A DNA stretch of 19,781 nt, taken from a virus (taxonomy: Duplodnaviria > Heunggongvirae > Uroviricota > Caudoviricetes). Under the pieces are notes generated by a model, which was not told the DNA's origin, did not search any database, and was given only the letters and a program-made list of their open reading frames with translations. The first letter of the stretch is position 1, and each line of letters begins with the position of its first letter. Below are positions 1,548 through 18,545 of this stretch, piece by piece. The translations under genes were made by a program, and so were the position numbers. The stretch covers positions 1 through 19,781 of IMG/VR virus record IMGVR_UViG_2548876854_000015, one strand, 5' to 3'.

Positions 1548-1560
1548 GTCCTGAGAAAGG

Positions 1561-1953: not shown

Positions 1954-2028
<75 letters not shown>

Positions 2029-2031
2029 ATA

Positions 2032-2107
<76 letters not shown>

Positions 2108-2340: not shown

Positions 2341-2375
2341 CCACAGAAACAACAAAACCCGCTCGATGGCGGGTT
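2341..2375 (-). terminator. Intrinsic terminator-like hairpin about 85 nt downstream of the Q-like gene
   Basis: 7-bp stem AACCCGC/GCGGGTT with loop tcgatg, followed on the minus strand by TTTTGTTGTTT. Confidence 0.45.
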
Positions 2376-2460
2376 CTATTAAAGTTTAATTGCGCTTGAT
2401 TCGCCTCGCGATACAGCTTTGCGAAGCGTAGCAAAATTGAAGCAGTTTATGCGTAAAAAA

Positions 2461-3290: not shown

Positions 3291-3889
3291 TACGCAAACT
3301 CCAGCAGCTGCGCGGCCACATTTTCGACTTGTTCCGGAGAGGAAAATTTACGGAACAGAATCCAGTTCCACAGCACATTCAGAACAGATTTATAAACCTG
3401 CTGAAACTCGGTTTCGTCCATATTCGCAAAAGCGATGGATTTCGCCCGACGCCCATGGCTACCGTCCGGATAAAAATGTTCGGTGTAAAATCCAGCCTGA
3501 ATGGTTACCCACTCGCGAAAAGCCTCAAACGACTTTAACAATGCCGTATCCCGGGTTCTGCGTGTCGCAACTGTATTCAGATATTGCTCTGCGGCATCAC
3601 TCAGGGCTGGCGTGTGTTCCCGACCAACTGATTCGCACAGGTAATCAACGAAACCAGACAGCAGTTCTCGTTCGCGAGGCGTGATCGCCCCACCGACCGG
3701 AGTCCAGTAATCGAATCCCAGTTGCAGGAGTTTGAAAAAACGCTTGTGGAATGCGTAGTTACGCACACGCTTAAAGTCTGCGTGTATCCACTCGCCTATT
3801 TTGATTTGATGCAGAAAATCACAACTCTCCGGCGTCGCCGGGAGAAGTAATCCGGAAGAGGTTTGTTTGACCAGTTGTATATGCGCCAT
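3290..3889 (-). CDS. Phage protein, DUF1367-like (nin-region neighbour of DUF1364)
   Basis: 199-aa ORF MAHIQLVKQTSSGLLLPATPESCDF...; family assignment is from memory of the DUF1367/DUF1364 gene pair and is unverified. Confidence 0.45.
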   Translation of the reverse strand: MAHIQLVKQTSSGLLLPATPESCDFLHQIKIGEWIHADFKRVRNYAFHKRFFKLLQLGFDYWTPVGGAITPRERELLSGFVDYLCESVGREHTPALSDAAEQYLNTVATRRTRDTALLKSFEAFREWVTIQAGFYTEHFYPDGSHGRRAKSIAFANMDETEFQQVYKSVLNVLWNWILFRKFSSPEQVENVAAQLLEFA

Positions 3890-4162
3890 TTCTCAATCTC
3901 TCGATGGCGCAGCGCAGCAGATGCCAGTTGTTCAGGCTGACGTATGAAGTATAAATAAACTGGCTCCAGTGTAAAGCCCCCACCTTAATGGAATAAAAAC
4001 CAAACAACAGATTGCTGGGATACAAACAACGCTTATTATTAAAAGCGGTTAAACAAATTAAATTTTAATGTTATGCAAATTTGTCAGATCACCATAATAT
4101 CTCATTTGAAAACCGCTGAAATAACAACCCTATCAGGGTTAATCATATTAAGGTGAGTAAAT

Positions 4163-4249
4163 ATGGAAAACAACAAATCTGCACATTACGTTCCTTTTTT
4201 ATCTGTAATACTTTTTGTTTTATGCTGTGCGTGGGCATTATTTTTATAA
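4163..4249 (+). CDS. Candidate 28-aa hydrophobic small protein (MENNKSAHYVPFLSVILFVLCCAWALFL)
   Basis: ATG with SD AGGTGAG 7 nt upstream; single predicted TM helix. Sits in the otherwise non-coding gap between hok and the DUF1367-like gene. No homolog recognised. Confidence 0.2.
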   Translation: MENNKSAHYVPFLSVILFVLCCAWALFL

Positions 4250-4357
4250 AAATATTCACAGATAAAATATACCCGCCAAAGCTGGTTAAGTGCGGGTGCG
4301 TTGAGGATGCCTGACACATCAGAGGTGGCGGGAGATTACTCTCCCGCCTGGTCACTC

Positions 4358-4513
4358 TTACTCTCTAGATTCGTAGTCTACGAAGACAGCGACCTCCGTC
4401 TGGCCGGTTCGGATTCGCACCTCGCAGAGGTCTTTCCTCGTTACCAGTGCCGTCACTATGACGGTTAAACAGATGACGATCAGGGCGATTAACATCGCCT
4501 TTTGCTGCTTCAT
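4358..4513 (-). CDS. hok: Hok/Gef-family type I toxin (51 aa)
   Basis: MKQQKAMLIALIVICLTVIVTALVTRKDLCEVRIRTGQTEVAVF... matches the Hok family almost residue for residue from memory. The GC-rich hairpin GGCGGGAG/CTCCCGCC at 4327-4348, just 3' of the stop, is consistent with a hok mRNA 3' stem. Confidence 0.9.
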   Translation of the reverse strand: MKQQKAMLIALIVICLTVIVTALVTRKDLCEVRIRTGQTEVAVFVDYESRE

Positions 4514-4940
4514 AGCCTGCTTCTCCTTGCCTTTCGGCACGTAAGAGGCTAACCTACATGTGTTCAGCATGGATTGAGCCTCAGATTAATGTTAAGCGTC
4601 CTGCAAGACGCGTAATGTTAACTGGGGCTTTTCTCTATCTGCCTTTTGGTGTTCATGCCTGAGACAGATAGCCTCAAGCACCCGCAGCGATTTTTACTTA
4701 ACTCTTCTTTTCACGCAAACCGTTTTTATCCTCAACGTAAATTTTACCAATATCGCCTAACACATCTCCCCTGCCCTGACGATGCTTACCTCTTTACACA
4801 GCCCCCTATTTATGTATTATCTTTTACAAACAACCAGTTAAGAGCTATCGGTGGGTGGGTTCGCCCTGCGGTAGCTTTTCCTTTATACATTGCATCTATT
4901 TATGTTCTAGTATATTCCTATATGTTCAAAAGGACTTTTC

Positions 4941-5873
4941 ATGCACAGCGTTAATTTCTATTCATTCCGCGTATTGACCCATAAAGGCAGTCGAGCCAGC
5001 AAAAAGCTTAATGAATTGGGTTTAAGTAATAAAAAAACGGCATATGAACTTTTTGTTGATTATTTTACTCTATATAAAAACACCCCCATCGAGTTTGGCG
5101 TATCCAAAACTAAAATATCTCTAGAACAACACGCTAAACTTCACTTTGATAACACAAAGAAAATTATATATGGTTATATAAAAGTTGGGAAATATGGAGA
5201 AAGTAGTGAAATAAAGGATGTAAAACTCAAAAAAATCCACTACAGGACAACTGCTTATGATGTAACACTCAAAGAACGTTATATTTTAATATACCTACCA
5301 GACACCCTTGAAGAAGGAATTATTGCATTCCATTCTTGCGATAATATTTCTGCTCGAGGTGTCCTTTCTGATTCTATCACTGAATATCTAAAAAACAAAT
5401 TTCAACTCGAAGCAAGAATCAATCCATTACATCATAAGAAAATCCCTCAATATATTCTCAATTCCGAATTAAAACAAATTAAGGCTCAAGGATATAAAGC
5501 ACCAAAAGACATTACTGATTCCTTTGGTCAAAACAAAACAAACATCAAGACAGACTTAATAATAAAAGCAAACGATGGCATGTTCGGAAGTTTCAGGGAT
5601 TTAAGAAACAAGAATATAGGAAACATCATTGAGATTATTGAAGATAAATGTGATGCAATAAAAGTAAGCTTACAGCTCGGCAGTCGGACTGTCGTTTTCA
5701 ATTATGATACCATACTAAAAAAAGGAATTTCCGCAGAGTTAGATGATAATGATCTAAAAATCGACCCATTAACAGGCATACCTGATCTAACAGCACTTCA
5801 TGACACGATAAAAAACCTTTCTAATGATATATTGTTAGAACTGCATAGCGGAAACAAAGGGGTGATCATATGA
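4941..5873 (+). CDS. Unknown 310-aa soluble Lys/Asn-rich protein; first gene of the AT-rich cassette
   Basis: Long ORF with SD AAGGA 6 nt before the ATG. About 30% G+C by hand count (19/60 in one line) against about 53% in a flanking phage line (32/60). No catalytic motif recognised. Confidence 0.7.
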   Translation: MHSVNFYSFRVLTHKGSRASKKLNELGLSNKKTAYELFVDYFTLYKNTPIEFGVSKTKISLEQHAKLHFDNTKKIIYGYIKVGKYGESSEIKDVKLKKIHYRTTAYDVTLKERYILIYLPDTLEEGIIAFHSCDNISARGVLSDSITEYLKNKFQLEARINPLHHKKIPQYILNSELKQIKAQGYKAPKDITDSFGQNKTNIKTDLIIKANDGMFGSFRDLRNKNIGNIIEIIEDKCDAIKVSLQLGSRTVVFNYDTILKKGISAELDDNDLKIDPLTGIPDLTALHDTIKNLSNDILLELHSGNKGVII

Positions 5874-6424
5874 ATAAAATAAATGTGCTGGGTGTAATAA
5901 TAAAACACTACAAAACAATGTCAGATCAGCGTGGAACAATGTTGATGAGCGACATTATCGTACATTTTATTGTTCCGCTATCTCTTTCTTTCGTTCTGTG
6001 CTGGACATACGGAATAATGAAACCGGCAATTGCTTCCGTCTTCGTTAACTTCGGGGCTATTACAACAGCACTATTAATGAGTGCAGTAATAATGATTTAT
6101 GAACAAAAACAAAAAACCATTACTAAGATATCAGACATAATTGAAGGACACAAATCCCGAGACAAATTGATATCATTAAACACTAACAAAACCATATATG
6201 AGCAGTTATGCCACAACGTCGCTTATGCAATATTAACTTCAATAGTATTGGTTATATTTTCAGTGATAATATATTTCCTGCCTGACAATGCAGTGGATTT
6301 AATGAAATGGTATTTTCGCGCACCTGCATATATTGTTAGCTTTTTAGCCTATACATCCTTTTTTATCACTGTTATAACGTTCTTAATGGTAATCAAAAGG
6401 TTTAGCACAATTTTAGATAATTGA
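5870..6424 (+). CDS. Unknown 184-aa integral membrane protein (4 predicted TM helices); second gene of the cassette
   Basis: ATG overlaps the upstream stop (ATGA at 5870-5873) with SD GGGGTG. Hydrophobic segments IIVHFIVPLSLSFVLCWTYGI, AIASVFVNFGAITTALLMSAVIMIY, VAYAILTSIVLVIFSVIIYFL, YIVSFLAYTSFFITVITFLMVI. 18/60 G+C in one line. Confidence 0.7.
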   Translation: MNKINVLGVIIKHYKTMSDQRGTMLMSDIIVHFIVPLSLSFVLCWTYGIMKPAIASVFVNFGAITTALLMSAVIMIYEQKQKTITKISDIIEGHKSRDKLISLNTNKTIYEQLCHNVAYAILTSIVLVIFSVIIYFLPDNAVDLMKWYFRAPAYIVSFLAYTSFFITVITFLMVIKRFSTILDN

Positions 6425-6435
6425 ACAGCGGAACA

Positions 6436-6467
6436 GCCGCCCTTTCGGGCGGCCTCCTGATGTTTTG
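6436..6467 (+). terminator. Hairpin GCCGCCC-tttc-GGGCGGC after the cassette, possible terminator
   Basis: Perfect 7-bp GC-rich stem 12 nt after the cassette stop; the downstream T-run is interrupted (ctcctgatgttttg). Confidence 0.4.
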
Positions 6468-6557
6468 AGGGTGCAGGAACCCCTCCGGTTAAGGATTTAA
6501 TAAAAATCACTTCTGATTTAAATTTTCAGTGTTTTGTTGTCAGGTGATTTATCGCCT

Positions 6558-6869
6558 TTACGCTTCAGCTTTATTTCGCAACCAGACACAAACCGGGCCA
6601 TCTTCGGTGTCATGTATTGAACCAATAAACCATCCATCGCCCTCTGGTCGTTCCGGTTCCCATGCAGAAATATCAGCATCACAAGCATCAAAGTCAGCAC
6701 ATCCTTCGTCTCTGAAGCAGAGGACGTATTGAAGTTTATTTTCCTCCATCCATGCGTTAAACTCTTCCGTTGAAATATGTTCTCTACCATCACAGAATTT
6801 TTCATATTCAGGATGCGTCCAGCAGCCATATTCATCACGTACTACTGGTATTTCTCTAATTTCTTTCAT
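6558..6869 (-). CDS. Unknown acidic Cys-containing 103-aa phage protein
   Basis: MKEIREIPVVRDEYGCWTHPEYEKFCDG... with SD GGGAGAA 6 nt upstream. About 28 Asp/Glu against about 10 Lys/Arg by hand count. Confidence 0.6.
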   Translation of the reverse strand: MKEIREIPVVRDEYGCWTHPEYEKFCDGREHISTEEFNAWMEENKLQYVLCFRDEGCADFDACDADISAWEPERPEGDGWFIGSIHDTEDGPVCVWLRNKAEA

Positions 6870-7119
6870 TTCTGTTCTCCCACGTTTTCAGACTTTCACC
6901 ACAGAACGGGCAAAAACACATTGCAACACCACGACCGATATATTGCCCAGAGTGAATTTGAGCAATATCTATGCCTGACTCGCCGGTGTTTATGTTCACA
7001 CGTTCCGGGATAAATATGCCTTTACTCTTGAATGTTGGATTTCCATATTCGAGAGATTTTGCCAAAGCCGCGCACGGTTCTATCTTGTTGCCATTAACCT
7101 GACATTTTGATGCGTTCAC
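6856..7119 (-). CDS. Unknown 87-aa protein with C-terminal CxCxxC motif
   Basis: Start taken at GTG 7119, overlapping the upstream stop (GTGA), with a strong SD AGGAGGT 6 nt upstream. The ATG at 7197 would overlap the upstream gene by 82 nt and has no SD. Confidence 0.5.
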   Translation of the reverse strand: MNASKCQVNGNKIEPCAALAKSLEYGNPTFKSKGIFIPERVNINTGESGIDIAQIHSGQYIGRGVAMCFCPFCGESLKTWENRNERN

Positions 7120-7532
7120 AGTACCACCTCCTGAAAATTTCCCTGATAGAAATCCAGTACACGCTGCATAGCTTCGCTCTGACGGCACTCGCGACAAATT
7201 ATGTTCTGTCGTCTGTTGTAACAGCGTATTTCACCATCCGGCAATGAATAAATCAGCTCGGGGTCTCTCTTCTTTTTCGCTGTACCTTTCGACATCTCTT
7301 TACGGGCCTTTATCCAGTCCTTGCGCGCCTGCTCCGAAGGAAATATCCCGTGCCCCGAACCATATACTATGCCACTGCCCACCAGCTCTTTCGCCAGAAC
7401 TTCTATCAGGTGTCTCGTTGCTCCGGTTTCATCTTCCAGTTGCTTACGCGTTTTCCTCCCGTCTCTGCGCACCAGTTCCACAATACGCGCCTTCAGTTGC
7501 TCCCGGTATTCAGGTGTAAAAACGTTTCTCAT
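7116..7532 (-). CDS. Unknown 138-aa phage protein
   Basis: Start taken at ATG 7532 (MRNVFTPEYREQLKARIVELV...) with SD GTGAGG, 7 nt after the upstream stop. The longer ORF from 7589 overlaps the upstream gene. Confidence 0.55.
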   Translation of the reverse strand: MRNVFTPEYREQLKARIVELVRRDGRKTRKQLEDETGATRHLIEVLAKELVGSGIVYGSGHGIFPSEQARKDWIKARKEMSKGTAKKKRDPELIYSLPDGEIRCYNRRQNIICRECRQSEAMQRVLDFYQGNFQEVVL

Positions 7533-7539
7533 AAGCGCC

Positions 7540-8301
7540 TCACTTTTCCAACACAACGCGACTGGTGGAATCGACAATCTGTCGGACAATATCCCGGTGT
7601 TTATTCAGCTCCCGCAGTGCGGCGCAGACACGCTCCCACTTCTGGACATGATTTTTCGCCCGGCGCAGTTCGCGGTTTGCCAGATGCAGCGATGGTAAAA
7701 TCAGGTCATCCGCCCGCGTTTCGGTGAACGATGGCAGCGACTGCACAATGTCCGCCACAGTTCCTGTTTTAATTTCTTCCTGTATTGCAGCTTCCTGTGC
7801 TGGTAACGCAACACCTGCTGGCTGAGGAAAGGCTTTACCATCAGTTTCCGTTACCAATGCAGCTTTCGGCTCTGCTGGTAAATTATCGTCCGGCATGCAG
7901 TAACGAAATTTACCGTTCTGATTTACGCGAATCAGGCGACCTTTGCTGATTGCCTGAGCCAACGTTGAAGCCACTTTGCGTGATGTGATACCGAACAGCG
8001 TAGCCAGCTCATCAGCCGTTTGTGGTCCGCGTTGTTCAATCGTCGCGGTTAAATCGCACTCTGAGATTTTCGCTACTGTTGCCGTGGTGGTTTCTTCCGG
8101 CAGTTCTGCCTGCTCTGGCTGTTCCTGCTGAACGTTGTTATCAGCCACACGCCAGGTGTATACGCTTTTATCAACGAAGCCAGCCTTTTTAAGTTCCCAC
8201 AGCTCGTTCAGCACTTCTTCACGACTGATATCAAGTCGCGCAGCCAGTTCTACCGACGTGGCTTTTCCCATTGCTTTCAGTACATCAAAAACGGTTTCCA
8301 T
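7540..8301 (-). CDS. ydaW: YdaW-like (DUF1627) protein, apparently full length
   Basis: [45 protein letters not shown]... N-terminus as in Rac ydaW from memory; SD GGGAGGAAA. K-12 ydaW is a truncated pseudogene. Confidence 0.65.
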
Positions 8302-8323
8302 TAAAATTTCCTCCCGGTAAAAA

Positions 8324-9070
8324 TCACTTCGCAATTCCTGGCTGGACGACATTCGGACGCCAGCTCTCCCAGTTAAAATTCACCCATCGCCCGCCGTTCA
8401 TGGTCATGCGATCCATAATCCGCTCGCCGAGCAATGTTTTCATGGCCTCATAGTTCAGGTTTGTCAGCATCCCCACGCTGCGCATCGACGCTGTCCGGCG
8501 ATCAACAATCTGGTGCAGCACCACCTGCTCGTTTTTTGTCTCGCGCTGAATGCCAATTTCATCAAGAACCAGCAGATCCACTTGGCACAGTTCCCGCAAA
8601 AATTTTTCGCCTGATTGCCCGTCGTCATAGCTGGCGTGTAGAGCACTCATGACATCAGCCACGGTAACCACAATCACTGTCTGGCCATCTTTCAGCAGGC
8701 GATTCCCGATAGCCGCCGCCAGATGGTTTTTTCCGGTACCAGGTTTTCCGCTGAACGCAAAATTTGTACACCCGGTCATCAGTTCATCAGCGATAGATTT
8801 CGCCTGGTTCAACGCGTATCGCTGACCGTCGTTCTGCACCTGGTAATTCGCAAACGAGCATTTGCGGTGCAATGGCTGGATGCCAGAGCGATTCAGAATT
8901 TTTTCCACCCGCAACTGACGATTCTGACGGTTGATCTCCTCACAACGTTTCTGGCCTTCGGAAAGTTGCCACTCGCGCCACTCCGCTACCGTTTTGAATG
9001 GGGCGGTTACATGTGGCGGGGCCAGTCTGCGGATACGTTCAAGAATGCCTCCTGCCGCAATATTTTTCAT
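8324..9070 (-). CDS. ydaV: DnaC-like replication/helicase-loader ATPase (YdaV)
   Basis: 248-aa ORF with Walker [12 protein letters not shown] and Walker B LLVLDEIG, directly downstream of ydaU. Length matches K-12 YdaV. Confidence 0.85.
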
Positions 9071-9076
9071 GGTCAG

Positions 9077-9934
9077 TTACCCCCTGAAGCCTGGCGGGAT
9101 CGCACTATCCGGTAACGAGACGGTGTTAACCTGTCGGAGTAACGTCTCAGGTCGAACACCTTTTGGCGCGAACAAGCCCTGGTATTCATTGGCGATGCTG
9201 TGTCGAATCACCTGCTCAGGTGAAAAACCCTGCTGGCGGAATTTTTCCAGCTCCCGTATCGCCCCGTTAGCGCCCTGCTCCGTTCGAATCGGTTTACGCA
9301 ATGCCTGGCGAAATTCAACCCACTCACGCCAGAGCGAGACAGAAATCCAGTTCGGCAAAGCAATATCCAGAGGGTCAAACTTTTTGACACCTCGATTCCC
9401 CCGGGGGGGATTTAGGGGGGGATCTGTTTTTAGATCTTTATCTGTATCTTTATTAGTTGCCTTTGTGTTGACATCATGTTCAAACACCACTTCAACATCT
9501 GTTTGAACACCTGTTAAATTTCTCTCTTGTTTTGTTTGAACATCTGCTTCCTTTCTGCTTCTTCTGGCCTGAACCGATGCTTTTCCTGCGGCTGATTTTT
9601 TGGTTAATTTTTCCCTGACTGATGCCAGATCTTCCTCAATCCGAAGATGCACCCATTCCTCGCCGTTATCGCAAAAAAACTCCCGCAAGGACGGTTCAAC
9701 ATCAGCCCATCGCTCGTTAGTCAGACGGGCAATTTTTGCCAGCCTGTTTTTAGGTATTGGCTTTCCTGTTTGCCAGTAATTGAACATCAGCAACAAATAC
9801 GCACCATGCTCCTCTGCTGACAAATGCATGGTGTCAGCCAGGTAATCAGCTATGTACAGTTGCATGTATGGTAATGCGGCCATAATTGCCCCGTATGATG
9901 CTGCCCGATTGCTTAGAATAAGCACAAACAGCAT
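9077..9934 (-). CDS. ydaU: Replication initiator, O-like (YdaU, DUF1376)
   Basis: 285-aa ORF containing MAALPYMQLYIADYLADTMHLSAEEHGAYLLL, matching K-12 YdaU length. An alternative start at ATG 9883 is possible. Low-complexity linker in the middle. Confidence 0.8.
   Translation of the reverse strand: MLFVLILSNRAASYGAIMAALPYMQLYIADYLADTMHLSAEEHGAYLLLMFNYWQTGKPIPKNRLAKIARLTNERWADVEPSLREFFCDNGEEWVHLRIEEDLASVREKLTKKSAAGKASVQARRSRKEADVQTKQERNLTGVQTDVEVVFEHDVNTKATNKDTDKDLKTDPPLNPPRGNRGVKKFDPLDIALPNWISVSLWREWVEFRQALRKPIRTEQGANGAIRELEKFRQQGFSPEQVIRHSIANEYQGLFAPKGVRPETLLRQVNTVSLPDSAIPPGFRG
9370..9545. repeat. Ori-like iterons and palindromes inside the ydaU linker region
   Basis: Three copies of a 10-bp palindromic core (TGTTCAAACA at 9477-9486; TGTTTGAACA at 9500-9509 and 9533-9542), plus GTCAAActtTTTGAC, CCCCCGGGGGGG and GATCTgtttttAGATC nearby. 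Confidence 0.45.
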
Positions 9935-9946
9935 GGAAACTTTTGC

Positions 9947-10369
9947 TTAATGAACAATGACAGAATCGTCGGAAGACCCGCCGCCGCTGAAATGCGCTTT
10001 CCGGTAAACGGCCTGGACTGCATCATCATGCGCATCAATTGCCGTACTTAACGCTTCCTGCGCCGCCAGTAATGCACGGCGTTCCAGGGTATCGAAGATG
10101 CAGAGTCGGTGACGCAGCTCGCGAGGAAGAATTGCCAGAACCGCAGGGATCAATTTCTGAATTTTTTCCCTTTGCGCATTCGTTTCACCTTTCAACCAAC
10201 GGTGATAGATATTCTGCTGATTGTTCCAGTCCTTGCCTGGAACCAGGGGCAATTCGCCGCCCCCCTGGCGCAGATATTCTTCAGTAATGGCATTGGCTAC
10301 CCATGCCTGCCCTTTTTCGGCTGCTAGGGCAAACAACACTGATTCGATGTGCTCATGCTTGATTTTCAT
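9947..10369 (-). CDS. ydaT: YdaT (cII-position early protein, toxic on derepression in Rac)
   Basis: 140-aa MKIKHEHIESVLFALAAEKGQAWVANAIT..., matches K-12 YdaT in length and sequence from memory. Confidence 0.85.
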   Translation of the reverse strand: MKIKHEHIESVLFALAAEKGQAWVANAITEEYLRQGGGELPLVPGKDWNNQQNIYHRWLKGETNAQREKIQKLIPAVLAILPRELRHRLCIFDTLERRALLAAQEALSTAIDAHDDAVQAVYRKAHFSGGGSSDDSVIVH

Positions 10370-10391
10370 GAATCATTTGCCTCTTGATGTT

Positions 10392-10688
10392 TCAGGTATG
10401 ATCAAATGAGGATTTGTTACTGTCATTTAGTTGCTTCACTGACATATTCTGCGAACAACATGCCGAACGTCGTAAATATGACCAGTCAATATCAGGACGA
10501 AGTTCTTCGCACAGAACCTCACCTCTTGTTGCACGTTCAATTGCTGGACATCTCTCGGCAGGCAATTGACGTACCCCTTTGATCCATTGATTTACGCTTG
10601 GAGGTGATACACCTAAAAGCCTAGCCATTGCTGATTGCCCACCGACAACAGCACAAGCTTGCTTGAATGAATAGTTCTCTTTTTTCAT
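10392..10688 (-). CDS. ydaS: YdaS (Cro-like HTH regulator)
   Basis: 98-aa MKKENYSFKQACAVVGGQSAMARLLGVSPPSVNQWIKG..., HTH; transcribed divergently from racR. Confidence 0.85.
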   Translation of the reverse strand: MKKENYSFKQACAVVGGQSAMARLLGVSPPSVNQWIKGVRQLPAERCPAIERATRGEVLCEELRPDIDWSYLRRSACCSQNMSVKQLNDSNKSSFDHT

Positions 10689-10715
10689 CGAATGAACTCC
10701 AAAAACACACAGAAA

Positions 10716-10792
10716 TATTAGGCGACGCCTAATATAAATGTCAATAGGCTATGCCTAATGCAATGAGGGTAGGGATTGCCTAATGCAATGAG
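10716..10792. promoter_or_regulatory. racR/ydaS divergent operator region
   Basis: Perfect palindrome TATTAGGCG-a-CGCCTAATA (10716-10734), TAGGC-tat-GCCTA (10745-10757), and a 16/17 direct repeat ATGCCTAATGCAATGAG / TTGCCTAATGCAATGAG (10751-10767 and 10776-10792). Shared half-site TTAGGC. Confidence 0.6.
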
Positions 10793-10811
10793 CATAGGAG
10801 AATATTAAGCA

Positions 10812-11288
10812 ATGCTTAGTGGTAAAGACTTAGGCCGAGCGATAGAGCAGGCCATTAACAAAAAAATCGCATCGGGATCCGTCAAATCAAAGGCGGAGGT
10901 CGCACGCCACTTCAAAGTCCAACCACCATCAATTTATGACTGGATTAAGAAAGGCTCCATAAGTAAAGATAAACTTCCAGAATTATGGCGTTTCTTTTCT
11001 GATGTTGTTGGTCCAGAGCATTGGGGGCTTAACGAATACCCCATACCAACCCCCACCAATTCAGATACAAAAAGTGAACTTTTAGATATAAACAACCTTT
11101 ATCAAGCAGCCTCTGATGAAATAAGAGCGATTGTAGCTTTCCTGTTATCTGGAAATGCTACAGAACCAGATTGGGTTGACCACGATGTTCGCGCCTACAT
11201 AGCAGCGATGGAAATGAAAGTGGGTAAGTATCTGAAAGCTCTAGAATCTGAACGGAAAAGCCAGAACATCACAAAAACTGGAACTTAA
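10812..11288 (+). CDS. racR: RacR prophage repressor (CI-like)
   Basis: 158-aa MLSGKDLGRAIEQAINKKIASGSVKSKAEVARHFKVQPPSIYDWIKKG..., N-terminal HTH; matches K-12 RacR length. Confidence 0.9.
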   Translation: MLSGKDLGRAIEQAINKKIASGSVKSKAEVARHFKVQPPSIYDWIKKGSISKDKLPELWRFFSDVVGPEHWGLNEYPIPTPTNSDTKSELLDINNLYQAASDEIRAIVAFLLSGNATEPDWVDHDVRAYIAAMEMKVGKYLKALESERKSQNITKTGT

Positions 11289-11360
11289 ACTTATATGGTC
11301 TGACGGAAAACTCCTGGATTCCGTTATTTAACCCCCCATCACTTTCTCCTGTCGTCATCA

Positions 11361-11425
11361 CCTATTAGGTTACGCTCAAAACATTAGGCATAGCCTATTG
11401 ACAATCAATTAGGCATTACCTATAG
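11361..11425. promoter_or_regulatory. Second operator-like cluster, inverted copy of the racR/ydaS operator, upstream of ydaG-ydaF
   Basis: ATTAGGCATAGCCTATTGACA (11383-11403) is the exact reverse complement of 10739-10759; further TTAGGC/TTAGGT half-sites at 11364-11370 and 11409-11414. Confidence 0.5.
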
Positions 11426-11595
11426 TTCCAGCATACCACCCACCCCGCCCCACAGAACGCCTGGCAATACTTCGAGTTACCAGGCCGTGGTAAGGGGTTA
11501 AGTAGCCAGCCCGAGGCGTATGAACATGACGGCGGGATTCAAATTTTGCAGTGCAGCAGTTAGTTCCGCCACCCGGCGTTAAGGGGAGAGATAAG

Positions 11596-11730
11596 ATGGT
11601 GCATTACGAAGTAGTTCAGTATTTGATGGATTGTTGCGGCATCACTTACAACCAGGCTGTGCAGGCTTTACGCAGCAACGACTGGGATCTCTGGCAGGCA
11701 GAAGCCTCTATCCGCAACAACAAGATGTGA
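11596..11730 (+). CDS. ydaG: YdaG small protein (44 aa)
   Basis: MVHYEVVQYLMDCCGITYNQAVQALRSNDWDLWQAEASIRNNKM, SD GGGGAGAG; below the 60-aa cut-off of the ORF track, translated by hand. Confidence 0.7.
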   Translation: MVHYEVVQYLMDCCGITYNQAVQALRSNDWDLWQAEASIRNNKM

Positions 11731-11740
11731 GGTGCGAAAA

Positions 11741-11896
11741 ATGCAAAAAATCGACCTCGGCAATAACGAATCCATGGTGTGCGGCGTGTTCCCCAACCAA
11801 GATGGAACGTTCACTGCTATGACGTATACCAAAAGCAAAACATTTAAAACCGAAACTGGTGCGCGCCGATGGTTGGAGAAGCACACAGTAAGCTAA
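11741..11896 (+). CDS. ydaF: YdaF small protein (51 aa)
   Basis: MQKIDLGNNESMVCGVFPNQDGTFTAMTYTKSKTFKTETGARRWLEKHTVS, translated by hand; 3' end overlaps the sieB stop convergently. Confidence 0.7.
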   Translation: MQKIDLGNNESMVCGVFPNQDGTFTAMTYTKSKTFKTETGARRWLEKHTVS

Positions 11897-12381
11897 CGAT
11901 TAAAACGTCTACTCCTGCTGTTCCAGAATAACTTCATAAAATGGGAGTATTTTTCGGTGACGAGATAATAAGAACAGTTTGCGCTATCACTCTGATGTTG
12001 AATGATGCCCTTCCGTTCTAATTTTTTCATAACCGGGTTACGGCAAGGAGAAGTGATAATAAGATTTCCGGTTTTAAGGAAATCTTTAAATACAGCTATT
12101 TCTTTCTCAGATAAACGAAGCAATACTCGTTGCTCTGGTAGTAATGAATAATGCTTTTGAATATGTGCTCGCAATCTTGAGAAGGAAATGGCGACCACGA
12201 AAGAAAAGGCAAAAACGATAATCTGAAAGAGCCAAGGTATTTCAGTATAAGCATTGAATGCGACAGTAAACTCTTTCGGTATCAGCCAGAGAGTGAGGCC
12301 AAAAATGATAATCGTATACATAAGTCTTTCGAGTGGCTCGTTAGCAAAAAGTTTCAACAATGGAGTAAATACATCCAACAT
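11893..12381 (-). CDS. sieB: SieB superinfection-exclusion membrane protein
   Basis: 162 aa from MLDVFTPLLKLFANEPLERLMYTIIIFGLTLWLIPKEF... with TM segments. The 203-aa upstream extension is rejected. Confidence 0.85.
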   Translation of the reverse strand: MLDVFTPLLKLFANEPLERLMYTIIIFGLTLWLIPKEFTVAFNAYTEIPWLFQIIVFAFSFVVAISFSRLRAHIQKHYSLLPEQRVLLRLSEKEIAVFKDFLKTGNLIITSPCRNPVMKKLERKGIIQHQSDSANCSYYLVTEKYSHFMKLFWNSRSRRFNR

Positions 12382-12599
12382 ATCAATAACTCTCAACTGT
12401 AAGGGTATTGAAATGTTAACACAAGCTCTCGCTGTAGGGGTATAGCCGAGACCACCGAAGCCCGGAGGTGGTGAAATAAAACTGGGCGCAACACGAAGGC
12501 GCATTTCCGATATCCATAAAGAGTCGGTCTTGTCTGTTAAATTTAAATGGTGGGAGTGCGCCTCCGGTTGTAAATAACGACATTGCTGTGTGTAGTCTT

Positions 12600-12646
12600 G
12601 GCGGCATCAGTTTTTTCTTGAAGTTCGGCTGATGTCCGCCCTTTTT
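12600..12646 (+). other. Long-loop hairpin GGCGGCATCAG...CTGATG(T)CCGCC followed by CTTTTT, upstream of kilR
   Basis: 11-bp stem with one bulge and an 18-nt loop, then a T5 run. Could attenuate read-through from the immunity region into the kil operon. Confidence 0.3.
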
Positions 12647-12811
12647 AAAGTGAATTTTGTGATGCGGTGAATGCGGCTAAGCGCACGCGGAACAGTTAAA
12701 AGCATCAGTGTTATGGGGGGATTATCCGGCGTTAATTGTTAACTGGTTAACGTCACCTGGAGGCACCAGGCACCGCATCAACAAAGTTCATTTGTGAAAA
12801 TGGAGATAATT

Positions 12812-13033
12812 ATGATTGCTCATCACTTCGGAACTGATGAAATACCTCGTCAGTGTGTGACTCCTGGTGATTATGTTCTTCATAACGGCCGGACATATAT
12901 TGCCTCGGCAAACAATATTAAAAAGCGAAAACTTTATATTCGAAACCTGACCACAAAAACATGCATTACTGACTGCATGATTAAAGTCTTCCTCGGTCGT
13001 GATGGTTTACCTGTAAAGGCGGAGTCATGGTGA
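12812..13033 (+). CDS. kilR: KilR (FtsZ/cell-division inhibitor)
   Basis: 73-aa [46 protein letters not shown]..., SD GGAG 7 nt upstream. Confidence 0.85.
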
Positions 13034-13203
13034 TGACTAAGAAAATAAAATGTGCTTACCACCTTTGCGATAAAGAAGTTAAAGAAAGCAAAAGCATTAA
13101 AAGACCACTTCATTTCATGCGTGGAGTTATCCCAACGACGGAAATGAAAAAATATTGTAGTGAAATATGTGCCGAAAAAGACCAGATGGCACACGAACTT
13201 TAA
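13033..13203 (+). CDS. ydaE: YdaE small Cys-rich zinc-binding protein (56 aa)
   Basis: [56 protein letters not shown], translated by hand; start overlaps the kilR stop. Alternative in-frame ATG at 13027. Confidence 0.7.
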   Translation: MTKKIKCAYHLCDKEVKESKSIKRPLHFMRGVIPTTEMKKYCSEICAEKDQMAHEL

Positions 13204-13277
13204 TTAACTGACTATGCGAAACTGAATTTATGCCAGCAATGGCAGGGATTCGCTCAACCTTAATTAAGGAGAAAAAC

Positions 13278-13553
13278 ATGATTACCAGTTATGAAGCCAC
13301 TGTTGTAACTACTGATGACATTGTTCACGAAGTTAATCTGGAAGGAAAGCGTATTGGCTACGTGATTAAAACAGAAAATAAAGAAACCCCATTCACTGTG
13401 GTTGATATCGACGGTCCATCAGGCAACGTTAAAACACTTCACGAAGGTGTCAAAAAAATGTGCCTGGTGCATACCGGAAAGAATCTGCCCGCAGAAAAAA
13501 AAGCCGAATTTCTGGCAACTCTAATTGCAATGAAATTAAAAGGTGAAATCTGA
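13278..13553 (+). CDS. racC: RacC
   Basis: 91 aa from MITSYEATVVTTDDIVHEVNLEGKRIGYVIKTENKETPF..., SD AAGGAG. Confidence 0.85.
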   Translation: MITSYEATVVTTDDIVHEVNLEGKRIGYVIKTENKETPFTVVDIDGPSGNVKTLHEGVKKMCLVHTGKNLPAEKKAEFLATLIAMKLKGEI

Positions 13554-13558
13554 AAGAA

Positions 13559-13583
13559 ATAGCCTGCGTATGACGCAGGCTAT
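13559..13583. other. Perfect 11-bp inverted repeat with 3-nt loop between racC and recE
   Basis: atagcctgcgt-atg-acgcaggctat, 6 nt after the racC stop. No U-tract on the plus side; a TTCTTTC-type run follows on the minus side. Confidence 0.4.
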
Positions 13584-13654
13584 GAACAGTGTGTATCCGG
13601 CAAGATCATTCACTGAACAAAACGAATTTTAATCTGAGTTGAGGTTAAAAAACA

Positions 13655-16600
13655 ATGAGCACAAAACCACTCTTCCTGTTACGGAAAGCGAAAAAATCAT
13701 CCGGTGAACCTGACGTCGTCCTGTGGGCAAGCGACGATTTTGAATCGACCTGTGCCACTCTGGACTACCTGATCGTTAAGTCAGGTAAAAAACTGAGCAG
13801 CTATTTTAAAGCTGTTGCCACGAATTTTCCTGTCGTTAATGACCTGCCCGCTGAAGGTGAGATCGATTTTACCTGGAGTGAACGCTATCAACTCAGCAAA
13901 GACTCCATGACATGGGAACTAAAACCGGGAGCAGCACCAGACAACGCTCACTATCAAGGCAATACCAACGTCAACGGCGAAGACATGACTGAGATTGAGG
14001 AGAATATGCTACTCCCAATTTCTGGCCAGGAACTGCCCATTCGTTGGCTTGCTCAACACGGCAGCGAAAAACCGGTAACGCACGTTTCACGCGACGGACT
14101 CCAGGCATTACACATTGCTCGGGCTGAAGAACTACCGGCTGTTACTGCCCTGGCTGTTTCCCACAAAACCAGCCTGCTCGACCCGCTGGAAATTCGCGAT
14201 CTCCACAAACTGGTTCGTGACACTGACAAAGTTTTCCCTAATCCTGGTAATTCAAACCTGGGACTGATAACTGCTTTTTTCGAAGCATACCTGAACGCTG
14301 ACTACACCGATCGAGGACTGCTGACAAAAGAGTGGATGAAGGGTAATCGTGTTTCACACATCACTCGCACGGCTTCCGGTGCTAATGCTGGCGGCGGAAA
14401 CCTCACCGATCGCGGCGAAGGTTTCGTACACGATCTGACGTCACTGGCGCGCGACGTAGCCACTGGCGTACTGGCCCGTTCAATGGATCTGGACATCTAT
14501 AACCTTCATCCGGCACACGCTAAACGCATTGAGGAAATTATCGCTGAAAATAAACCGCCCTTTTCTGTTTTCCGCGACAAATTCATCACCATGCCTGGCG
14601 GGCTGGATTATTCCCGCGCCATCGTGGTTGCGTCCGTAAAAGAAGCACCAATTGGGATCGAGGTCATCCCCGCGCACGTCACTGAATATCTGAACAAAGT
14701 ACTGACTGAAACCGATCATGCCAACCCTGATCCGGAAATCGTGGATATTGCCTGCGGTCGCTCCTCTGCCCCGATGCCGCAGCGAGTAACAGAAGAAGGA
14801 AAACAGGATGATGAAGAAAAACCGCAACCATCTGGAACAACGGCAGTTGAACAGGGAGAGGCTGAAACAATGGAACCGGAGGCAACTGAACATCATCAGG
14901 ACACGCAGCCGCTGGATGCTCAGTCACAGGTAAATTCTGTTGATGCGAAATATCAGGAACTGCGGGCAGAACTCCATGAAGCCCGGAAAAACATTCCATC
15001 AAAAAATCCTGTCGATGCCGATAAATTGCTTGCTGCATCACGTGGTGAATTTGTTGACGGAATTAGCGACCCGAACGATCCGAAATGGGTTAAGGGGATC
15101 CAGACTCGCGATTCTGTGTACCAGAACCAGCCAGAAACGGAAAAAACCAGCCCGGATGTGAAACAACCTGAGGCAGTAGTGCAACAGGAACCGGAAATAG
15201 TCTGCAATGCCTGCGGTCAGACTGGCGGAGATAACTGCCCTGACTGTGGGGCGGTGACGGGCGACGCAACATACCAGGAAACATTCGATGAAGAGAATCA
15301 GGTTGAAGCTAAGGAAAAAGATCCGGTGGAAATGGAAGGCGCTGAACATCCGCACAATGAGAATGCTGGCAGCGATCCGCATCGTGATTGCAGTGATGAA
15401 ACTGGTGAAGCGTCAGCTCCTGTAGCAACTGAAATCATGTGGCCGTCATATTTCGAGCCTGGCCGCTATGAAAACCTCCCGAACGAGGTTTATCACTCCG
15501 CCAACGGAATAAGCAGCACGATGCTGAAGGATGCCCGTATCAGCCTGATGTATTACCACGGACGGCACATTGCCGGAACTATTCCGAACGAGGAAAGTGA
15601 TGCACTGCTGCGTGGGCGGATCATTCACAGCTATGTTCTGGAAACGGATAAATTCGCTGATGAATATGCCATTCCGGTACCGGTTCCTGAATATGTGGTT
15701 ACTACTTCTAGCGAACTGATCGCCATCATTAAAAAACACAATGCCAGTCTGCCAGCACTGATGACACCAGAGCAGATGAAAGAGTGGATCGAAAGCTACA
15801 ACAGCACTCTTATACAGCCACTGTCTGTAAGTGCCGGGGCCGAAGAAACAGGCATCCTTTACGGTTCGCTTCCGGTGGAATTTCGGCGTATTCCTGAGGG
15901 GGAAAAACACACAGCATCAGCAATGAAAGCCTGTATTAAAGAATACAACGCAAGCCTCCCTCCTCTGTTGAAAACCAGTGGAGCACGGGAGCAGCTTCTG
16001 GATCAAATTGAAACTGTAGCCCCAGAACTGGCAAAAAAAGAACGTGCTAAATCTTTGCCTTACAACATCAGTGGCACAAAAGAGCAATTAACCGAAATCG
16101 CACGGAAAATTCGCCCGGAACTGGTGACACTGGAGGACTGGCAAAAACGCCAGCAAGAAGAAAATGCCGGGAAAACGTTTATCAGTCCGGAGATGTATGA
16201 ACAGGCAAAAAATATTCACGCGGCACTGCAAAACAATACCGATGCAGCAAGGCTACTCAACCACCCGGATCGCAAATCTGAAATCAGCTATTTCGGGTTT
16301 GATGAAGAAACCGGGCTGGAAATCAGGGTCCGTCCTGATATCGAAATCCGGCTGCCATACGAAAGCATTTGCGCTGACGTGAAGTCAGTCAGCCTCGGTT
16401 ATGTGCGACAGGAACGACTTAAAGATCGCCTGCACCGTGAAATTATTGAGCGTGATTATCACCTCAGCGCCGCAATGTATTGCGATGTGGCAAACCTGGA
16501 CAAATTTTTCTGGATCTTCGTCAACAAAGATGCTGGCTATCACTGGGTGGCAGTCGTGGAAGCCTCGCAGGAACTCCTGGAACTTGGTCGACAGGAATAT

Positions 16601-16726
16601 CGCCGGACGCTACGCCAGATAAACGAAGCCCTGGAGACAAACAACTGGCCAGCACCGATTACCGAAAGTTATACCGACGAATTAAACGACTTTGATCTTC
16701 GTCGTCTTGAAGCACTGAGCATCTGA
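13655..16726 (+). CDS. recE: RecE-family exonuclease VIII, 1023 aa, with divergent expanded C-terminal nuclease region
   Basis: The first roughly 590 aa are near-identical to K-12 RecE as I recall it. The C-terminal part is only distantly alignable to the RecE nuclease core (RVRPDIEIR...ICADVKSVS against RCRPDKIIPE...IMDVKTTAD) and carries an extra segment of about 150 aa with an internal repeat ([10 protein letters not shown] / [11 protein letters not shown]). Confidence 0.85.
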
Positions 16727-16737
16727 GGAAGGACACA

Positions 16738-17790
16738 ATGAACGAATTAACTCAACAAGAAAATATTAACTCTAATGTTGCGGTTTTCAGCCCTCAGTCC
16801 CTGGCTGCAATTCAGACATTTTCCCAGGTAATGGCTTCCGGCATGGCTACTGTACCGGAACACCTCCGGGGAAATCCATCAGACTGCATGGCCATCACCA
16901 TGCAGGCGATGCAGTGGCAAATGAACCCTTACGCAGTAGCTCAGAAAACTTTCGTTGTGAATGGTGTGCTCGGATATGAAGCGCAACTGGTTAATGCCGT
17001 AATCAGTACTCGTGGGCCGCTAACCGGGCGTATTGAATATGACTGGTTCGGGCCGTGGGAAAAAATTATCGGGAAATTTGAAATCAGGAAGAGCGACAAA
17101 GGGAAAGAATATCGTGTACCTGGCTGGAAGCTGGCCGATGAAAACGGGATCGGTGTTCGTGTCCAGGCAACACTACGCGGCGAAAGTAAACCACGCGTAC
17201 TGGAATTACTTCTGGCGCAGGCCAGAACACGTAACTCAACGCTATGGGCCGACGATCCTCGCCAGCAGCTTGCCTATCTAGCGCTGAAACGCTGGGCGCG
17301 CCTTTATTGCCCCGAAGTGATTCTTGGAGTGTACACCAGGGACGAACTGGACGAGCCACAGGAAAAAATCATTAATCCGGTTCAGGAACATAAAAACACT
17401 TCCGCTTGCCGCGCGGAACGTGAAACAACAATTATTGAGCAGGATGCCGGGGAAAACTGGATCGATGCTTTCCGTGAACGTATTGAGCAGGCACAAAGCA
17501 CCGGGGAAACAACAGCACTTCGCCAGGAAGTGGAAGATCATAAAAATACACTTGGCGCTCTCTATACGGAACTTAAAGGAAAAGTGGTTCAGCGTCATCA
17601 CCGTCTCAATGCTATTGCCCGTATCGAGAAGATGATAAATGACCTACCTTCTTCAGGTGATCCAGAAGCAGAACAAAAATTTACTGCTCTGGAAAATACG
17701 CTGAATGCTGCCCGGCCACATCTGGGTGAATTATATGAGGCGTATAAAACGACACTGACAGATATGAAACCAGAATATATCGGCTCCTGA
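16738..17790 (+). CDS. Putative single-strand annealing protein in the RecT position; family not recognised
   Basis: 350-aa ORF immediately after the recE-like gene with SD GAGGAAGGA. Sequence does not match K-12 RecT (269 aa) as I recall it; function inferred from position only. Confidence 0.45.
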   Translation: MNELTQQENINSNVAVFSPQSLAAIQTFSQVMASGMATVPEHLRGNPSDCMAITMQAMQWQMNPYAVAQKTFVVNGVLGYEAQLVNAVISTRGPLTGRIEYDWFGPWEKIIGKFEIRKSDKGKEYRVPGWKLADENGIGVRVQATLRGESKPRVLELLLAQARTRNSTLWADDPRQQLAYLALKRWARLYCPEVILGVYTRDELDEPQEKIINPVQEHKNTSACRAERETTIIEQDAGENWIDAFRERIEQAQSTGETTALRQEVEDHKNTLGALYTELKGKVVQRHHRLNAIARIEKMINDLPSSGDPEAEQKFTALENTLNAARPHLGELYEAYKTTLTDMKPEYIGS

Positions 17791-17800
17791 TATTGACTTT

Positions 17801-17838
17801 GGCGGTGTAGCCTCACCGCCATCACAAAATTTTATTTT
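17801..17838 (+). terminator. Possible terminator: hairpin GGCGGTG-tagcct-CACCGCC then A/T-rich tract
   Basis: 7-bp stem 11 nt after the stop of the annealing-protein gene; the T-run (ttttatttt) begins 9 nt after the stem, so this is weak. Confidence 0.35.
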
Positions 17839-17853
17839 ATGAGAGAAAAGACA

Positions 17854-18048
17854 ATGCGGTATGAAAAAGTCAAACCATGCCCTTTTTGTGGTTGTCCATC
17901 AGTAACGGTGAAAGCCATTTCAGGATATTACCGCGCGAAGTGTAACGGATGCGAATCCCGAACCGGCTATGGTGGAAGTGAAAAAGAAGCACTCGAACGA
18001 TGGAATAAACGAACCACTGGAAATAATAATGGAGGTGTTCATGTATAA
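17854..18048 (+). CDS. ralR: RalR/Lar (restriction alleviation protein; type I toxin of the ralR/ralA pair in Rac)
   Basis: 64-aa MRYEKVKPCPFCGCPSVTVKAISGYYRAKCNGCESRTGYGG..., four-Cys zinc ribbon. The ralA antisense partner was not located. Confidence 0.85.
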   Translation: MRYEKVKPCPFCGCPSVTVKAISGYYRAKCNGCESRTGYGGSEKEALERWNKRTTGNNNGGVHV

Positions 18049-18229
18049 AATTACCGCCACTATTGAAAAGGAAGGTGGCACTCCTACTAACTGGACAAGG
18101 TACTCAAAAACAAAATTAACCAAATCAGAATGCGAAAAAATGCTCTCAGGTAAAAAAGAAGCAGGCGTTTCCAGAGAGCAGAAAGTAAAACTGATAAATT
18201 TTAATTGCGAGCAACTTCAGTCCTCGTGA
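18029..18229 (+). CDS. ydaC: YdaC (DUF1187) small protein
   Basis: MEVFMYKITATIEKEGGTPTNWTRYSKTKLTKSECEKMLSGKK...; start overlaps the ralR 3' end, SD GGAGGT. An alternative start at 18041 (MYKIT) is possible. Confidence 0.65.
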   Translation: MEVFMYKITATIEKEGGTPTNWTRYSKTKLTKSECEKMLSGKKEAGVSREQKVKLINFNCEQLQSS

Positions 18230-18328
18230 ATTGCATTGTATTCAAATTAAAACTTCATAGCTGATTATTAATAATCAACATCGGGCGTCAATTTCAGTCT
18301 AACATTGGCGCCTGCCAGAGGTGATGCG

Positions 18329-18544
18329 ATGGCACAAGTAATCTTTAATGAAGAGTGGATGGTTGAATACGGCCTGATGCTTCGCACTGGTCTGGGGGCC
18401 AGACAAATTGAAGCATACCGCCAGAACTGTTGGGTGGAAGGCTTCCACTTCAAACGAGTATCTCCTTTAGGGAAGCCAGACAGTAAGCGAGGGATTATCT
18501 GGTACAACTATCCAAAGATAAATCAGTTTATCAAAGACTCATGA
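18329..18544 (+). CDS. xisR: Excisionase (XisR/YdaQ-like)
   Basis: 71 aa from [43 protein letters not shown]..., SD GAGGTG; ends 1 nt before int. Confidence 0.8.
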
Positions 18545-18545
18545 T

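Follow-up and report, generated by a model that had tools for sequence, protein, structure and literature searches.

Rac, the source of recET recombineering and of the cell-division inhibitor KilR, is a much-used model for the silencing of cryptic prophages. Recent work has treated its repressor, RacR, chiefly as the repressor of the ydaS–ydaT ‘toxins’, and the rest of its regulon has been called uncharacterised. Here, we analyse a 19,781-nt stretch of DNA (positions 1–19,781 of the IMG/VR virus record IMGVR_UViG_2548876854_000015; hereafter, the window), which according to the RefSeq annotation is filled entirely by a Rac-type prophage, spanning its lysis genes through the end of intR, and we describe two clusters of operator-like palindromes on either side of racR, one in the racR–ydaS intergenic region and one between racR and the ydaG–ydaF gene pair. 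Gene names are those of the RefSeq annotation of the identical region of E. coli MEI003, in which locus coordinates equal window coordinates plus 201; positions 10300–12000 are 100% identical to MEI003 and 98.5–98.8% identical to many other E. coli. The genes around the two clusters are as follows.

10392–10688, minus strand: ydaS, Cro-like, transcribed from the promoter PR (open reading frame (ORF) list; Pfam YdaS_toxin, 2.6e-31, and P22_Cro, 3.4e-9; RefSeq)
10812–11288, plus strand: racR, encoding the 158-aa repressor (ORF list; RefSeq)
11596–11730, plus strand: ydaG, first gene after the predicted promoter PL (ORF list; RefSeq)
11741–11896, plus strand: ydaF, second gene after PL (ORF list; RefSeq)

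The divergent genes racR and ydaS are separated by a 123-bp gap, and the ydaG/ydaF pair gives UBA_4-like and DUF1391 matches in Pfam.

Operator clusters on both sides of racR

The racR–ydaS region contains a perfect palindrome with 9-bp arms, ATATTAGGC-GAC-GCCTAATAT at 10715–10735, together with TTAGGC half-site repeats, both of which the initial annotation of this DNA had pointed out. It had also reported that the stretch 10739–10759 recurs as an exact reverse complement at 11383–11403; this holds, and the identity is one base longer, giving an exact inverted repeat of 22 bp (10739–10760, TGTCAATAGGCTATGCCTAATG, versus 11382–11403) that extends to 33 nt at 88% identity when mismatches are allowed. 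A repeat of 22 bp lies beyond all of 100 dinucleotide-preserving shuffles of the window, in which the longest exact, non-overlapping inverted repeat measured 12–19 bp.

A motif scan across the prophage, which the initial annotation had suggested as a check, was run over the whole window with the operator consensus ATTAGGCNNNGCCTAAT (ATTAGGC-N3-GCCTAAT), allowing up to three mismatches. It returned six matches against 0.88 expected, a number reached by none of 200 shuffles. All six flank racR, starting at 10717, 10743, 10768 and 10804 on one side, within or at the edge of the intergenic gap, and at 11383 and 11408 on the other, and the 19.8-kb window holds none outside these two clusters. The downstream cluster lies 76–136 bp past the racR stop codon (11288) and roughly 170 bp ahead of ydaG (11596). 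Each cluster coincides with one of the two best promoter matches found in 10300–12600, PL (11/12) downstream of racR and PR (10/12) upstream of ydaS. This arrangement matches the PR–OR/cI/OL–PL topology, in which a repressor gene stands between a right operator (OR) with its promoter PR and a left operator (OL) with its promoter PL, and we therefore denote the downstream sites OL1, OL2 and a possible OL3, and the downstream promoter PL. Operators are listed without strand.

10715–10744, minus strand: PR, the ydaS–ydaT promoter; −35 TTGACA at 10744–10739, 18-bp spacer, −10 TAATAT at 10720–10715; match 10/12
10717–10733, no strand: OR1, ATTAGGCGACGCCTAAT, covering the PR −10; 0 mismatches
10743–10759, no strand: OR2, AATAGGCTATGCCTAAT, abutting and overlapping the PR −35, core of the left arm of the repeat; 1 mismatch
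10768–10784, no strand: extra weak operator, GGTAGGGATTGCCTAAT, derived from a 25-bp tandem duplication; 3 mismatches
10804–10820, no strand: operator over the racR start codon, ATTAAGCAATGCTTAGT, the ‘O3’ of PMC9638921; 3 mismatches
11364–11380, no strand: possible OL3, ATTAGGTTACGCTCAAA, with only the left half-site good; 4 mismatches
11383–11399, no strand: OL2, ATTAGGCATAGCCTATT, core of the right arm of the repeat (11382–11403); 1 mismatch
11408–11424, no strand: OL1, ATTAGGCATTACCTATA, whose right half-site carries the −10 hexamer; 3 mismatches
11398–11426, plus strand: predicted PL; −35 TTGACA at 11398–11403, 17-bp spacer, −10 TATAGT at 11421–11426; match 11/12
11433–11595, plus strand: predicted untranslated leader of PL, from an inferred start

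PL reads towards ydaG, ydaF, kilR, recET and xis–int, and its transcript is predicted to start near 11433 (approximately 1,419,619 in K-12, NC_000913.3, minus strand). At PR and PL alike, the first two T’s of the −35 hexamer form the end of one operator, and the following operator, whose start is 25–26 bp beyond, contains the −10 hexamer within its right half-site. Judged by its sequence, each arm of the inverted repeat is thus the ‘operator 2 plus −35’ unit of one of two divergent promoters built to a single design, and the two stretches are reverse-complementary because the PL module mirrors the ydaS promoter. The ydaST promoter has previously been placed on operator O1 (PMC9638921). The K-12 counterparts of OL2 and OL1 are at 1,419,653–669 and 1,419,628–644, respectively.

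Conservation of the downstream module

A tblastn search of RacR against phage genomes recovered Escherichia phage vB_EcoS-683R6 (99%) and Klebsiella phage KpF5 (56%), and a scan of one genome per species added 13 further RacR loci, from E. coli, E. ruysiae, Mixta, Morganella, a Pseudomonadota metagenome-assembled genome (MAG), Klebsiella sp., Proteus, two Achromobacter, Nitrosomonas and Burkholderia, making 15 (L001–L015). When these relatives were scanned with the operator consensus, the OR set was present in all 15, and the module ATTAGGCnnnGCCTA-TTGACA-nnnn-ATTAGGCnnnnCCTAAT(AT) followed the repressor gene in 13, including those of KpF5, Mixta, Morganella, Proteus, the two Achromobacter and Burkholderia. 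The module thus spans two classes of Proteobacteria; it begins between 63 bp (Morganella) and 2,132 bp (Burkholderia) past the end of the repressor gene, in flanking DNA that differs from locus to locus. Alignment shows that half-sites and promoter hexamers are kept across genera and that the spacers vary. OL2 is in register in all 12 aligned sequences, and OL1 starts 25 bp after the start of OL2 in every locus with the module; OL3 has three mismatches in phage 683R6 and E. ruysiae and is not conserved outside Escherichia. The Klebsiella sp. locus, which has no ydaS, also has no OL, and its PR is degenerate.

The genes of the window were compared with ten distant loci by tblastn, and only the RacR N-terminal domain and YdaS are shared among them; eight of these loci keep the OL/PL module. 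With these the sole shared genes, operators, repressor and cro travel as one immunity cassette, and the conservation of the module with that cassette is established by these loci. Among complete E. coli genomes, 593 of 5,426 carry the 73-bp OL/PL module, 445 of them at 99% identity or more. Searching IMG/VR for exact copies of a short segment of the module yielded 120 loci. The complete divergent pair occurs in 65, and in 64 of these a RacR-type gene separates the two modules; 17 are RacR loci with one module only, in several cases adjoining the edge of a contig; another 7 show one module but no RacR-type match; and 31 are chance matches with neither module nor RacR. The spacings of the module pairs fall into discrete classes (597–626, 1,198, 1,455, 1,500, 1,763, approximately 1,900, 2,200 and 2,587 bp).

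Two of these relatives deserve separate mention. In KpF5 (L001, 3649–4803), a 1.15-kb HSDR_N/DUF450 gene followed by a strong intrinsic terminator lies between the repressor gene and OL; it encodes a protein of 384–389 aa in KpF5 and in the IMG/VR locus L026, and its position, that of rexAB in lambda, makes it a candidate for a defence moron expressed in the lysogen. The spacing of about 1.9 kb is common to eleven IMG/VR loci, of which L026 was the one examined for gene content. The second, L005 (JARKOR010000130.1, 5.2 kb), is labelled as a Candidatus Nanosynbacter MAG (Saccharibacteria); its RacR is 100% identical to that of E. coli and its OR and OL are of the E. coli type, so the contig almost certainly belongs to E. 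coli and was mis-binned.

That the repeat is exact is peculiar to this strain and not a conserved feature. In K-12 MG1655, the downstream OL/PL cluster is identical to that of the window, and one base of an N3 spacer differs in the racR–ydaS copy, so that 21 of 22 positions agree and the longest stretch of exact identity is 14 bp; between the PR and PL units of other genera, the agreement is 15–19 of 22. The right operator also differs between genera. Relative to the racR start, the operators of Escherichia loci number four (−95, −69, −44 and −8) and those of other genera three (−68, −43 and −8). A 25-bp tandem duplication (10745–10769 and 10770–10794, 80% identical) occurs only in the Escherichia loci, and its promoter-proximal copy is the one equal to OL2, a pattern suggesting that duplication or conversion probably installed a PL-like O2/−35 unit in the Escherichia OR. 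The start-codon operator extends 9 bp into racR, with the repressor ATG in its 3-nt spacer, and occupies −8 in all 16 sequences scanned (the window and L001–L015), from Escherichia to Burkholderia; its conservation is partly forced by conserved N-terminal codons (MLSGK or MLNGT). Such a site would imply autoregulation at or right beside the start codon throughout the family.

One reading of the repeat is that a duplication, an inversion or gene conversion in a decaying prophage left it behind as a neutral relic, without function now. The K-12 Rac prophage is defective, and some copying has evidently occurred, given the agreement of 21–22 of 22 positions between the PR-proximal and PL units in Escherichia and the tandem duplication in OR. 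However, the module is found in many genera and in the isolated phages KpF5 and vB_EcoS-683R6, with differing flanks and spacings, its half-sites and hexamers are retained while spacers vary, and OL/PL is identical in K-12 and the window strain though OR differs. The cross-genus conservation largely refutes the relic, to which we attach next to no credence.

Control of the early left operon

From ydaG to intR, the RefSeq annotation places every gene except sieB on the PL strand. The remaining annotated genes that bear on this operon and on the opposite one are listed below.

9947–10369, minus strand: ydaT (RefSeq)
11893–12381, minus strand: sieB (RefSeq)
12812–19781, plus strand: kilR, ydaE, racC, recE, recT, ralR, a DUF1187 gene, xisR and intR (RefSeq)

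RacR is known to bind the racR–ydaS intergenic region, where electrophoretic mobility shift assays (EMSA) resolve three complexes and chromatin immunoprecipitation with quantitative PCR (ChIP-qPCR) confirms occupancy (PMC5700373), and where it footprints on (T/A)TAGGC-n3-GCCTA(T/A) operators O1–O3 (PMC9638921). The OL sites share the ATTAGGC half-site and the 7-3-7 geometry of these operators and are presumably bound by the same protein. Transcriptome data bear on the genes downstream. When RacR is depleted by C.Csp231I, racR is the sole Rac gene whose RNA goes down (RNA-seq, PMC6765115), whereas ydaF, ydaG and ydaE as well as racC rise approximately 40-fold (PMC6765115; PMC11014345) and kilR, ydaC and ralA more than 70-fold (PMC6765115); under CRISPR interference (CRISPRi) against racR, its RNA falls 11- to 20-fold and recE, recT, xisR and intR rise (bioRxiv 10.64898/2026.09.06.749655). 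Because ydaF and ydaG rise while racR transcripts fall, a separate promoter is needed between racR and ydaG, which is where PL lies. Taken together with the architecture and conservation of the module, these data make it very probable that the cluster at 11364–11426 is the RacR-operated left operator–promoter of the Rac immunity region. The proposal of the initial annotation that a second RacR-type promoter places ydaG and ydaF under repressor control thus gains support from four independent lines: from the operators that overlap the region's best sigma-70 promoter match (11/12), from the cross-genus module, from derepression upon RacR depletion and from the equivalent promoter of prophage CP-933P, which is repressed approximately 100-fold (PMC8630535).

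In the model that we favour, PR and PL would be two copies of one design facing apart, with racR between them and co-directional with PL. In a lysogen, RacR dimers would occupy OL2 and OL1, two 17-bp palindromes with starts 25 bp apart, and, with OL2 overlapping the −35 hexamer and OL1 containing the −10, would exclude RNA polymerase from PL. This occlusion would silence ydaG, ydaF, kilR, ydaE, racC, recE, recT, ralR, xisR and intR. As RacR falls, PL and PR (ydaS–ydaT) would fire together, and YdaS would later probably turn both down again, by analogy with CP-933P.

Transcription of racR itself runs towards the left operon, and the downstream sites could instead act as a protein roadblock or terminator against read-through from racR into kilR, rather than regulating a promoter of their own. 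The two are co-directional, silencing of kilR has been attributed to termination of transcripts from the racR region (PMC4150792), and a terminator scan flags the palindromes as weak terminator-like hairpins. But a pure roadblock needs no promoter, whereas both hexamers (−35 and −10) have been conserved across genera, in register with the operators; KpF5 already has its strong intrinsic terminator before the module; and the rise of ydaF and ydaG by approximately 40-fold as racR RNA falls (PMC6765115) calls for a promoter of their own. The terminator-like matches, moreover, are on the wrong strand, and their number does not exceed that in shuffles. We consider a roadblock improbable. As intrinsic terminators, the palindromes were rejected: they are flagged on the minus strand only, with stems of three G–C pairs and 3-nt loops, and the two matches compare with 2.2 expected from shuffles.

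Loss of RacR also induces YdaS and YdaT, and the leftward genes could be switched on indirectly, by the CII-like YdaT or another induced factor, with the palindromes incidental. YdaT does activate transcription and has sites within Rac (PMC11879457), and both proteins are induced in all of the RNA-seq evidence. The two YdaT sites mapped in Rac, however, lie within the intergenic region and ydaS, away from ydaG, and the indirect route leaves aside a near-consensus promoter overlapped by two RacR-type operators and conserved in relatives without a ydaT homologue; we judge it quite improbable. A promoter designated ‘PRM’ in a study of Rho-dependent termination (PMC4150792) was considered as a possible equivalent of PL and rejected, because its start, as located from the primer sequences, falls within ydaS, at about 10602. 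This plus-strand start lies upstream of racR by 210 nt, antisense to ydaS, and ‘PRM’ is the YdaT-activated reverse, PRE-like promoter, located outside the intergenic region (PMC11879457).

Alternatively, the main ligand of the sites could be not RacR but the Cro-like YdaS, which, once induction had occurred, would shut down transcription of the early-left genes. YdaS of CP-933P represses the left promoter as strongly as the repressor PaaR2 does (PMC8630535), and YdaS is weakly similar in sequence to the N-terminal domain of RacR. Action of YdaS at OL is nevertheless compatible with RacR control and does not exclude it; the published RacR footprint is on this half-site (PMC9638921), and in lysogens the operon is silent and no YdaS can be detected (PMC5700373). 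That YdaS is the principal ligand is a very improbable reading.

Several observations weigh against RacR control of PL. Published EMSA, footprinting and ChIP-qPCR experiments are confined to the racR–ydaS intergenic region (PMC5700373; PMC9638921), and RacR has been argued to be unlikely to have many further targets (PMC5700373). The derepression seen by RNA-seq coincides with induction of YdaS and YdaT, so an indirect contribution is possible. OL1 is a weak match in Escherichia (three mismatches) and OL3 a weaker one (four), and two of the 15 relatives have no OL within 4 kb. Finally, a deletion of racR, the intergenic region and ydaS is viable although it keeps PL and kilR (PMC5700373), so a derepressed PL is not lethal. 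Either the in vivo strength of PL falls short of what its hexamers suggest, or most of its transcripts end before kilR, for instance through Rho acting on a C-rich leader or through convergent transcription of sieB.

The first 30 nt of the predicted leader (11433–11462) contain 17 C and 3 G, a C-rich and G-poor composition that resembles a Rho-utilisation site. One may speculate that Rho entry at the leader, with the known silencing of kilR by Rho and NusG, is the reason that derepression of PL is tolerated. Folding of the leader gave no sign of a nut/put-like or riboswitch-like element, being no better than that of shuffles (z = −0.32). The gene sieB, which opposes the strand of the PL operon, overlaps the end of ydaF by 4 bp, and as it lies on the opposite strand inside this operon, transcription from PL to kilR must run antisense through it; such convergent transcription could modulate either gene. 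In K-12, a small RNA (sRNA), KilS, is annotated between sieB and kilR.

A PL operated by RacR would be a direct, testable cause of the co-induction of kilR, recET, ralR and xis–int upon loss of RacR and would give a precise explanation for the RacR transcriptome data. It might also account for zygotic induction and for some recE-activating (sbcA) mutations, and it would explain why a deletion from sieB to ydaU with kilR intact is tolerated, since this deletion removes PL. Exact K-12 coordinates are now at hand for mutagenesis of the operators and promoter.

Comparison with lambdoid immunity regions and the question of looping

The layout of the Rac region is that of lambdoid phages of the lambda, 434 and P22 type: a divergent repressor/cro-like gene pair with operators between; a further cluster of operators, of the same consensus, over a promoter that faces outward in the direction of the repressor gene; an early-left operon containing kil, recombination and xis–int genes; and operators, repressor and cro kept together as one cassette. 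As in lambda, the repressor gene stands between two operator clusters that share one 17-bp palindromic consensus, racR is co-directional with PL as cI is, and the two outward promoters have their −35 and −10 hexamers covered by the two promoter-proximal operators. The 25-bp spacing of adjacent operators in Rac is close to that of lambda, and morons are tolerated between repressor and OL in both (the HSDR_N gene of KpF5; rexAB between cI and OL). The two differ in that only two strong operators are conserved at the Rac OL, the Escherichia OR comprises four sites, including the one that covers the racR start codon, and PL is followed by ydaG and ydaF instead of a gene for an N-like antiterminator. 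RacR itself is 158 aa long; its C-terminal domain is small and helical, and it lacks an S24 autocleavage domain. The lambda OL and OR are separated by approximately 2.3 kb, against about 0.64 kb in Rac.

Two other prophages offer closer precedents. CP-933P of E. coli O157:H7 is Rac-like, with a ydaS–ydaT right operon and a left promoter, PL933P, that carries OL1–3 and was found by the same reasoning, from −35 and −10 hexamers identical to those of PR and from OR-like operators; in reporter assays, it is repressed approximately 100-fold by PaaR2 and by YdaS each (PMC8630535). Its palindromes are of 18 bp with the consensus GTTTAGTAA, its repressor is different, and a toxin–antitoxin pair adjoins the repressor gene; the Rac OL/PL, in contrast, is known here from its sequence. 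Qin, a cryptic lambdoid prophage of K-12, has a short SOS-insensitive repressor, DicA, with operators both at dicA–dicC and at dicBp, a PL-like promoter driving a cell-division inhibitor; its operator sequence is unrelated, its regulation is experimentally established, and an antirepressor, Rem, is known (bioRxiv 10.1101/2023.04.14.536235).

The initial annotation took the second site to be undescribed. We find no explicit description of it for Rac: the papers on O1–O3 (PMC5700373; PMC9638921) deal with the intergenic fragment and do not mention the downstream cluster, its promoter or the ydaG side, sites near ydaG likewise go unmentioned in PMC11014345, PMC11879457 and bioRxiv 10.64898/2026.09.06.749655, and a search of full-text papers on RacR, YdaT, KilR, CP-933P and Rho found no account of a Rac OL/PL, though an earlier mention is still possible. 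As a kind of element, on the other hand, an OL/PL is what one expects of a lambdoid prophage, and CP-933P and Qin provide documented cases. The Rac OL/PL is therefore the ordinary second operator–promoter of a lambdoid immunity region, apparently unwritten for Rac, and it adds nothing conceptually new to the lambda paradigm.

RacR is not of the CI/LexA type, lacking the S24 C-terminal domain with its Ser–Lys dyad: a Pfam search gave a weak HTH_17 match only and no Peptidase S24. A sequence search of RacR against the PDB found no homologue, and a two-domain layout has been described from an AlphaFold model (PMC9638921). RacR and DicA have been grouped with the short Gifsy-type repressors (GfoR/GtgR), which are inactivated by antirepressors and not cleaved (PMC3121763); the size of RacR and the absence of S24 fit this group, the grouping itself being that of PMC3121763. 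In several of the wider spacing classes, repressors of 350–366 aa with a fused S24 domain are found with the same operators and the same OL/OR layout. In five such relatives (L075, L083, L114, L119 and L123), the RacR-type N-terminal domain is approximately 72–77% identical over 77 aa, and the S24 domain (PF00717, E = 1e-13) has a GDSMEP motif. One DNA-binding domain and operator set thus occurs with at least two unrelated C-terminal domains, implying different routes of induction with the same immunity.

Looping between OL and OR has been proposed for CP-933P, given that PaaR2 octamerises (PMC8630535). In Rac, where the centres of OR2 and OL2 are 640 bp apart, an OL–OR loop of the kind that the initial annotation suggested is plausible, but we would entertain it only tentatively. 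RacR lacks the S24 C-terminal domain, which mediates octamerisation of lambda CI, its oligomeric state is unreported in the literature, and OL is retained by relatives with quite different C-terminal domains, for which simple promoter occlusion suffices to explain its conservation. The OL–OR distance and its helical phasing proved uninformative as a test of looping, as the spacing ranges from approximately 0.6 to 2.6 kb between relatives. A more specific version, in which RacR, though S24-less, would bridge OL and OR into a loop that tightens both lytic promoters and feeds back on racR through the start-codon operator, seems to us unlikely. Were it true, the copying of a PL-type O2/−35 unit into the Escherichia OR (22 of 22) would be an adaptation that matches sites for pairing, and lambda-style looping would arise with unrelated oligomerisation domains on one shared DNA-binding domain.

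An Rfam scan of the whole window, which gave no match in 10700–11600, found only two tRNA genes (Gly and Thr), sok and RalA, in the intervals 1957–2107, 4508–4683 and 18047–18225. The sok antisense RNA adjoins a hok/gef gene and the RalA antitoxin sRNA overlaps ralR; all are ordinary for Rac-type prophages.

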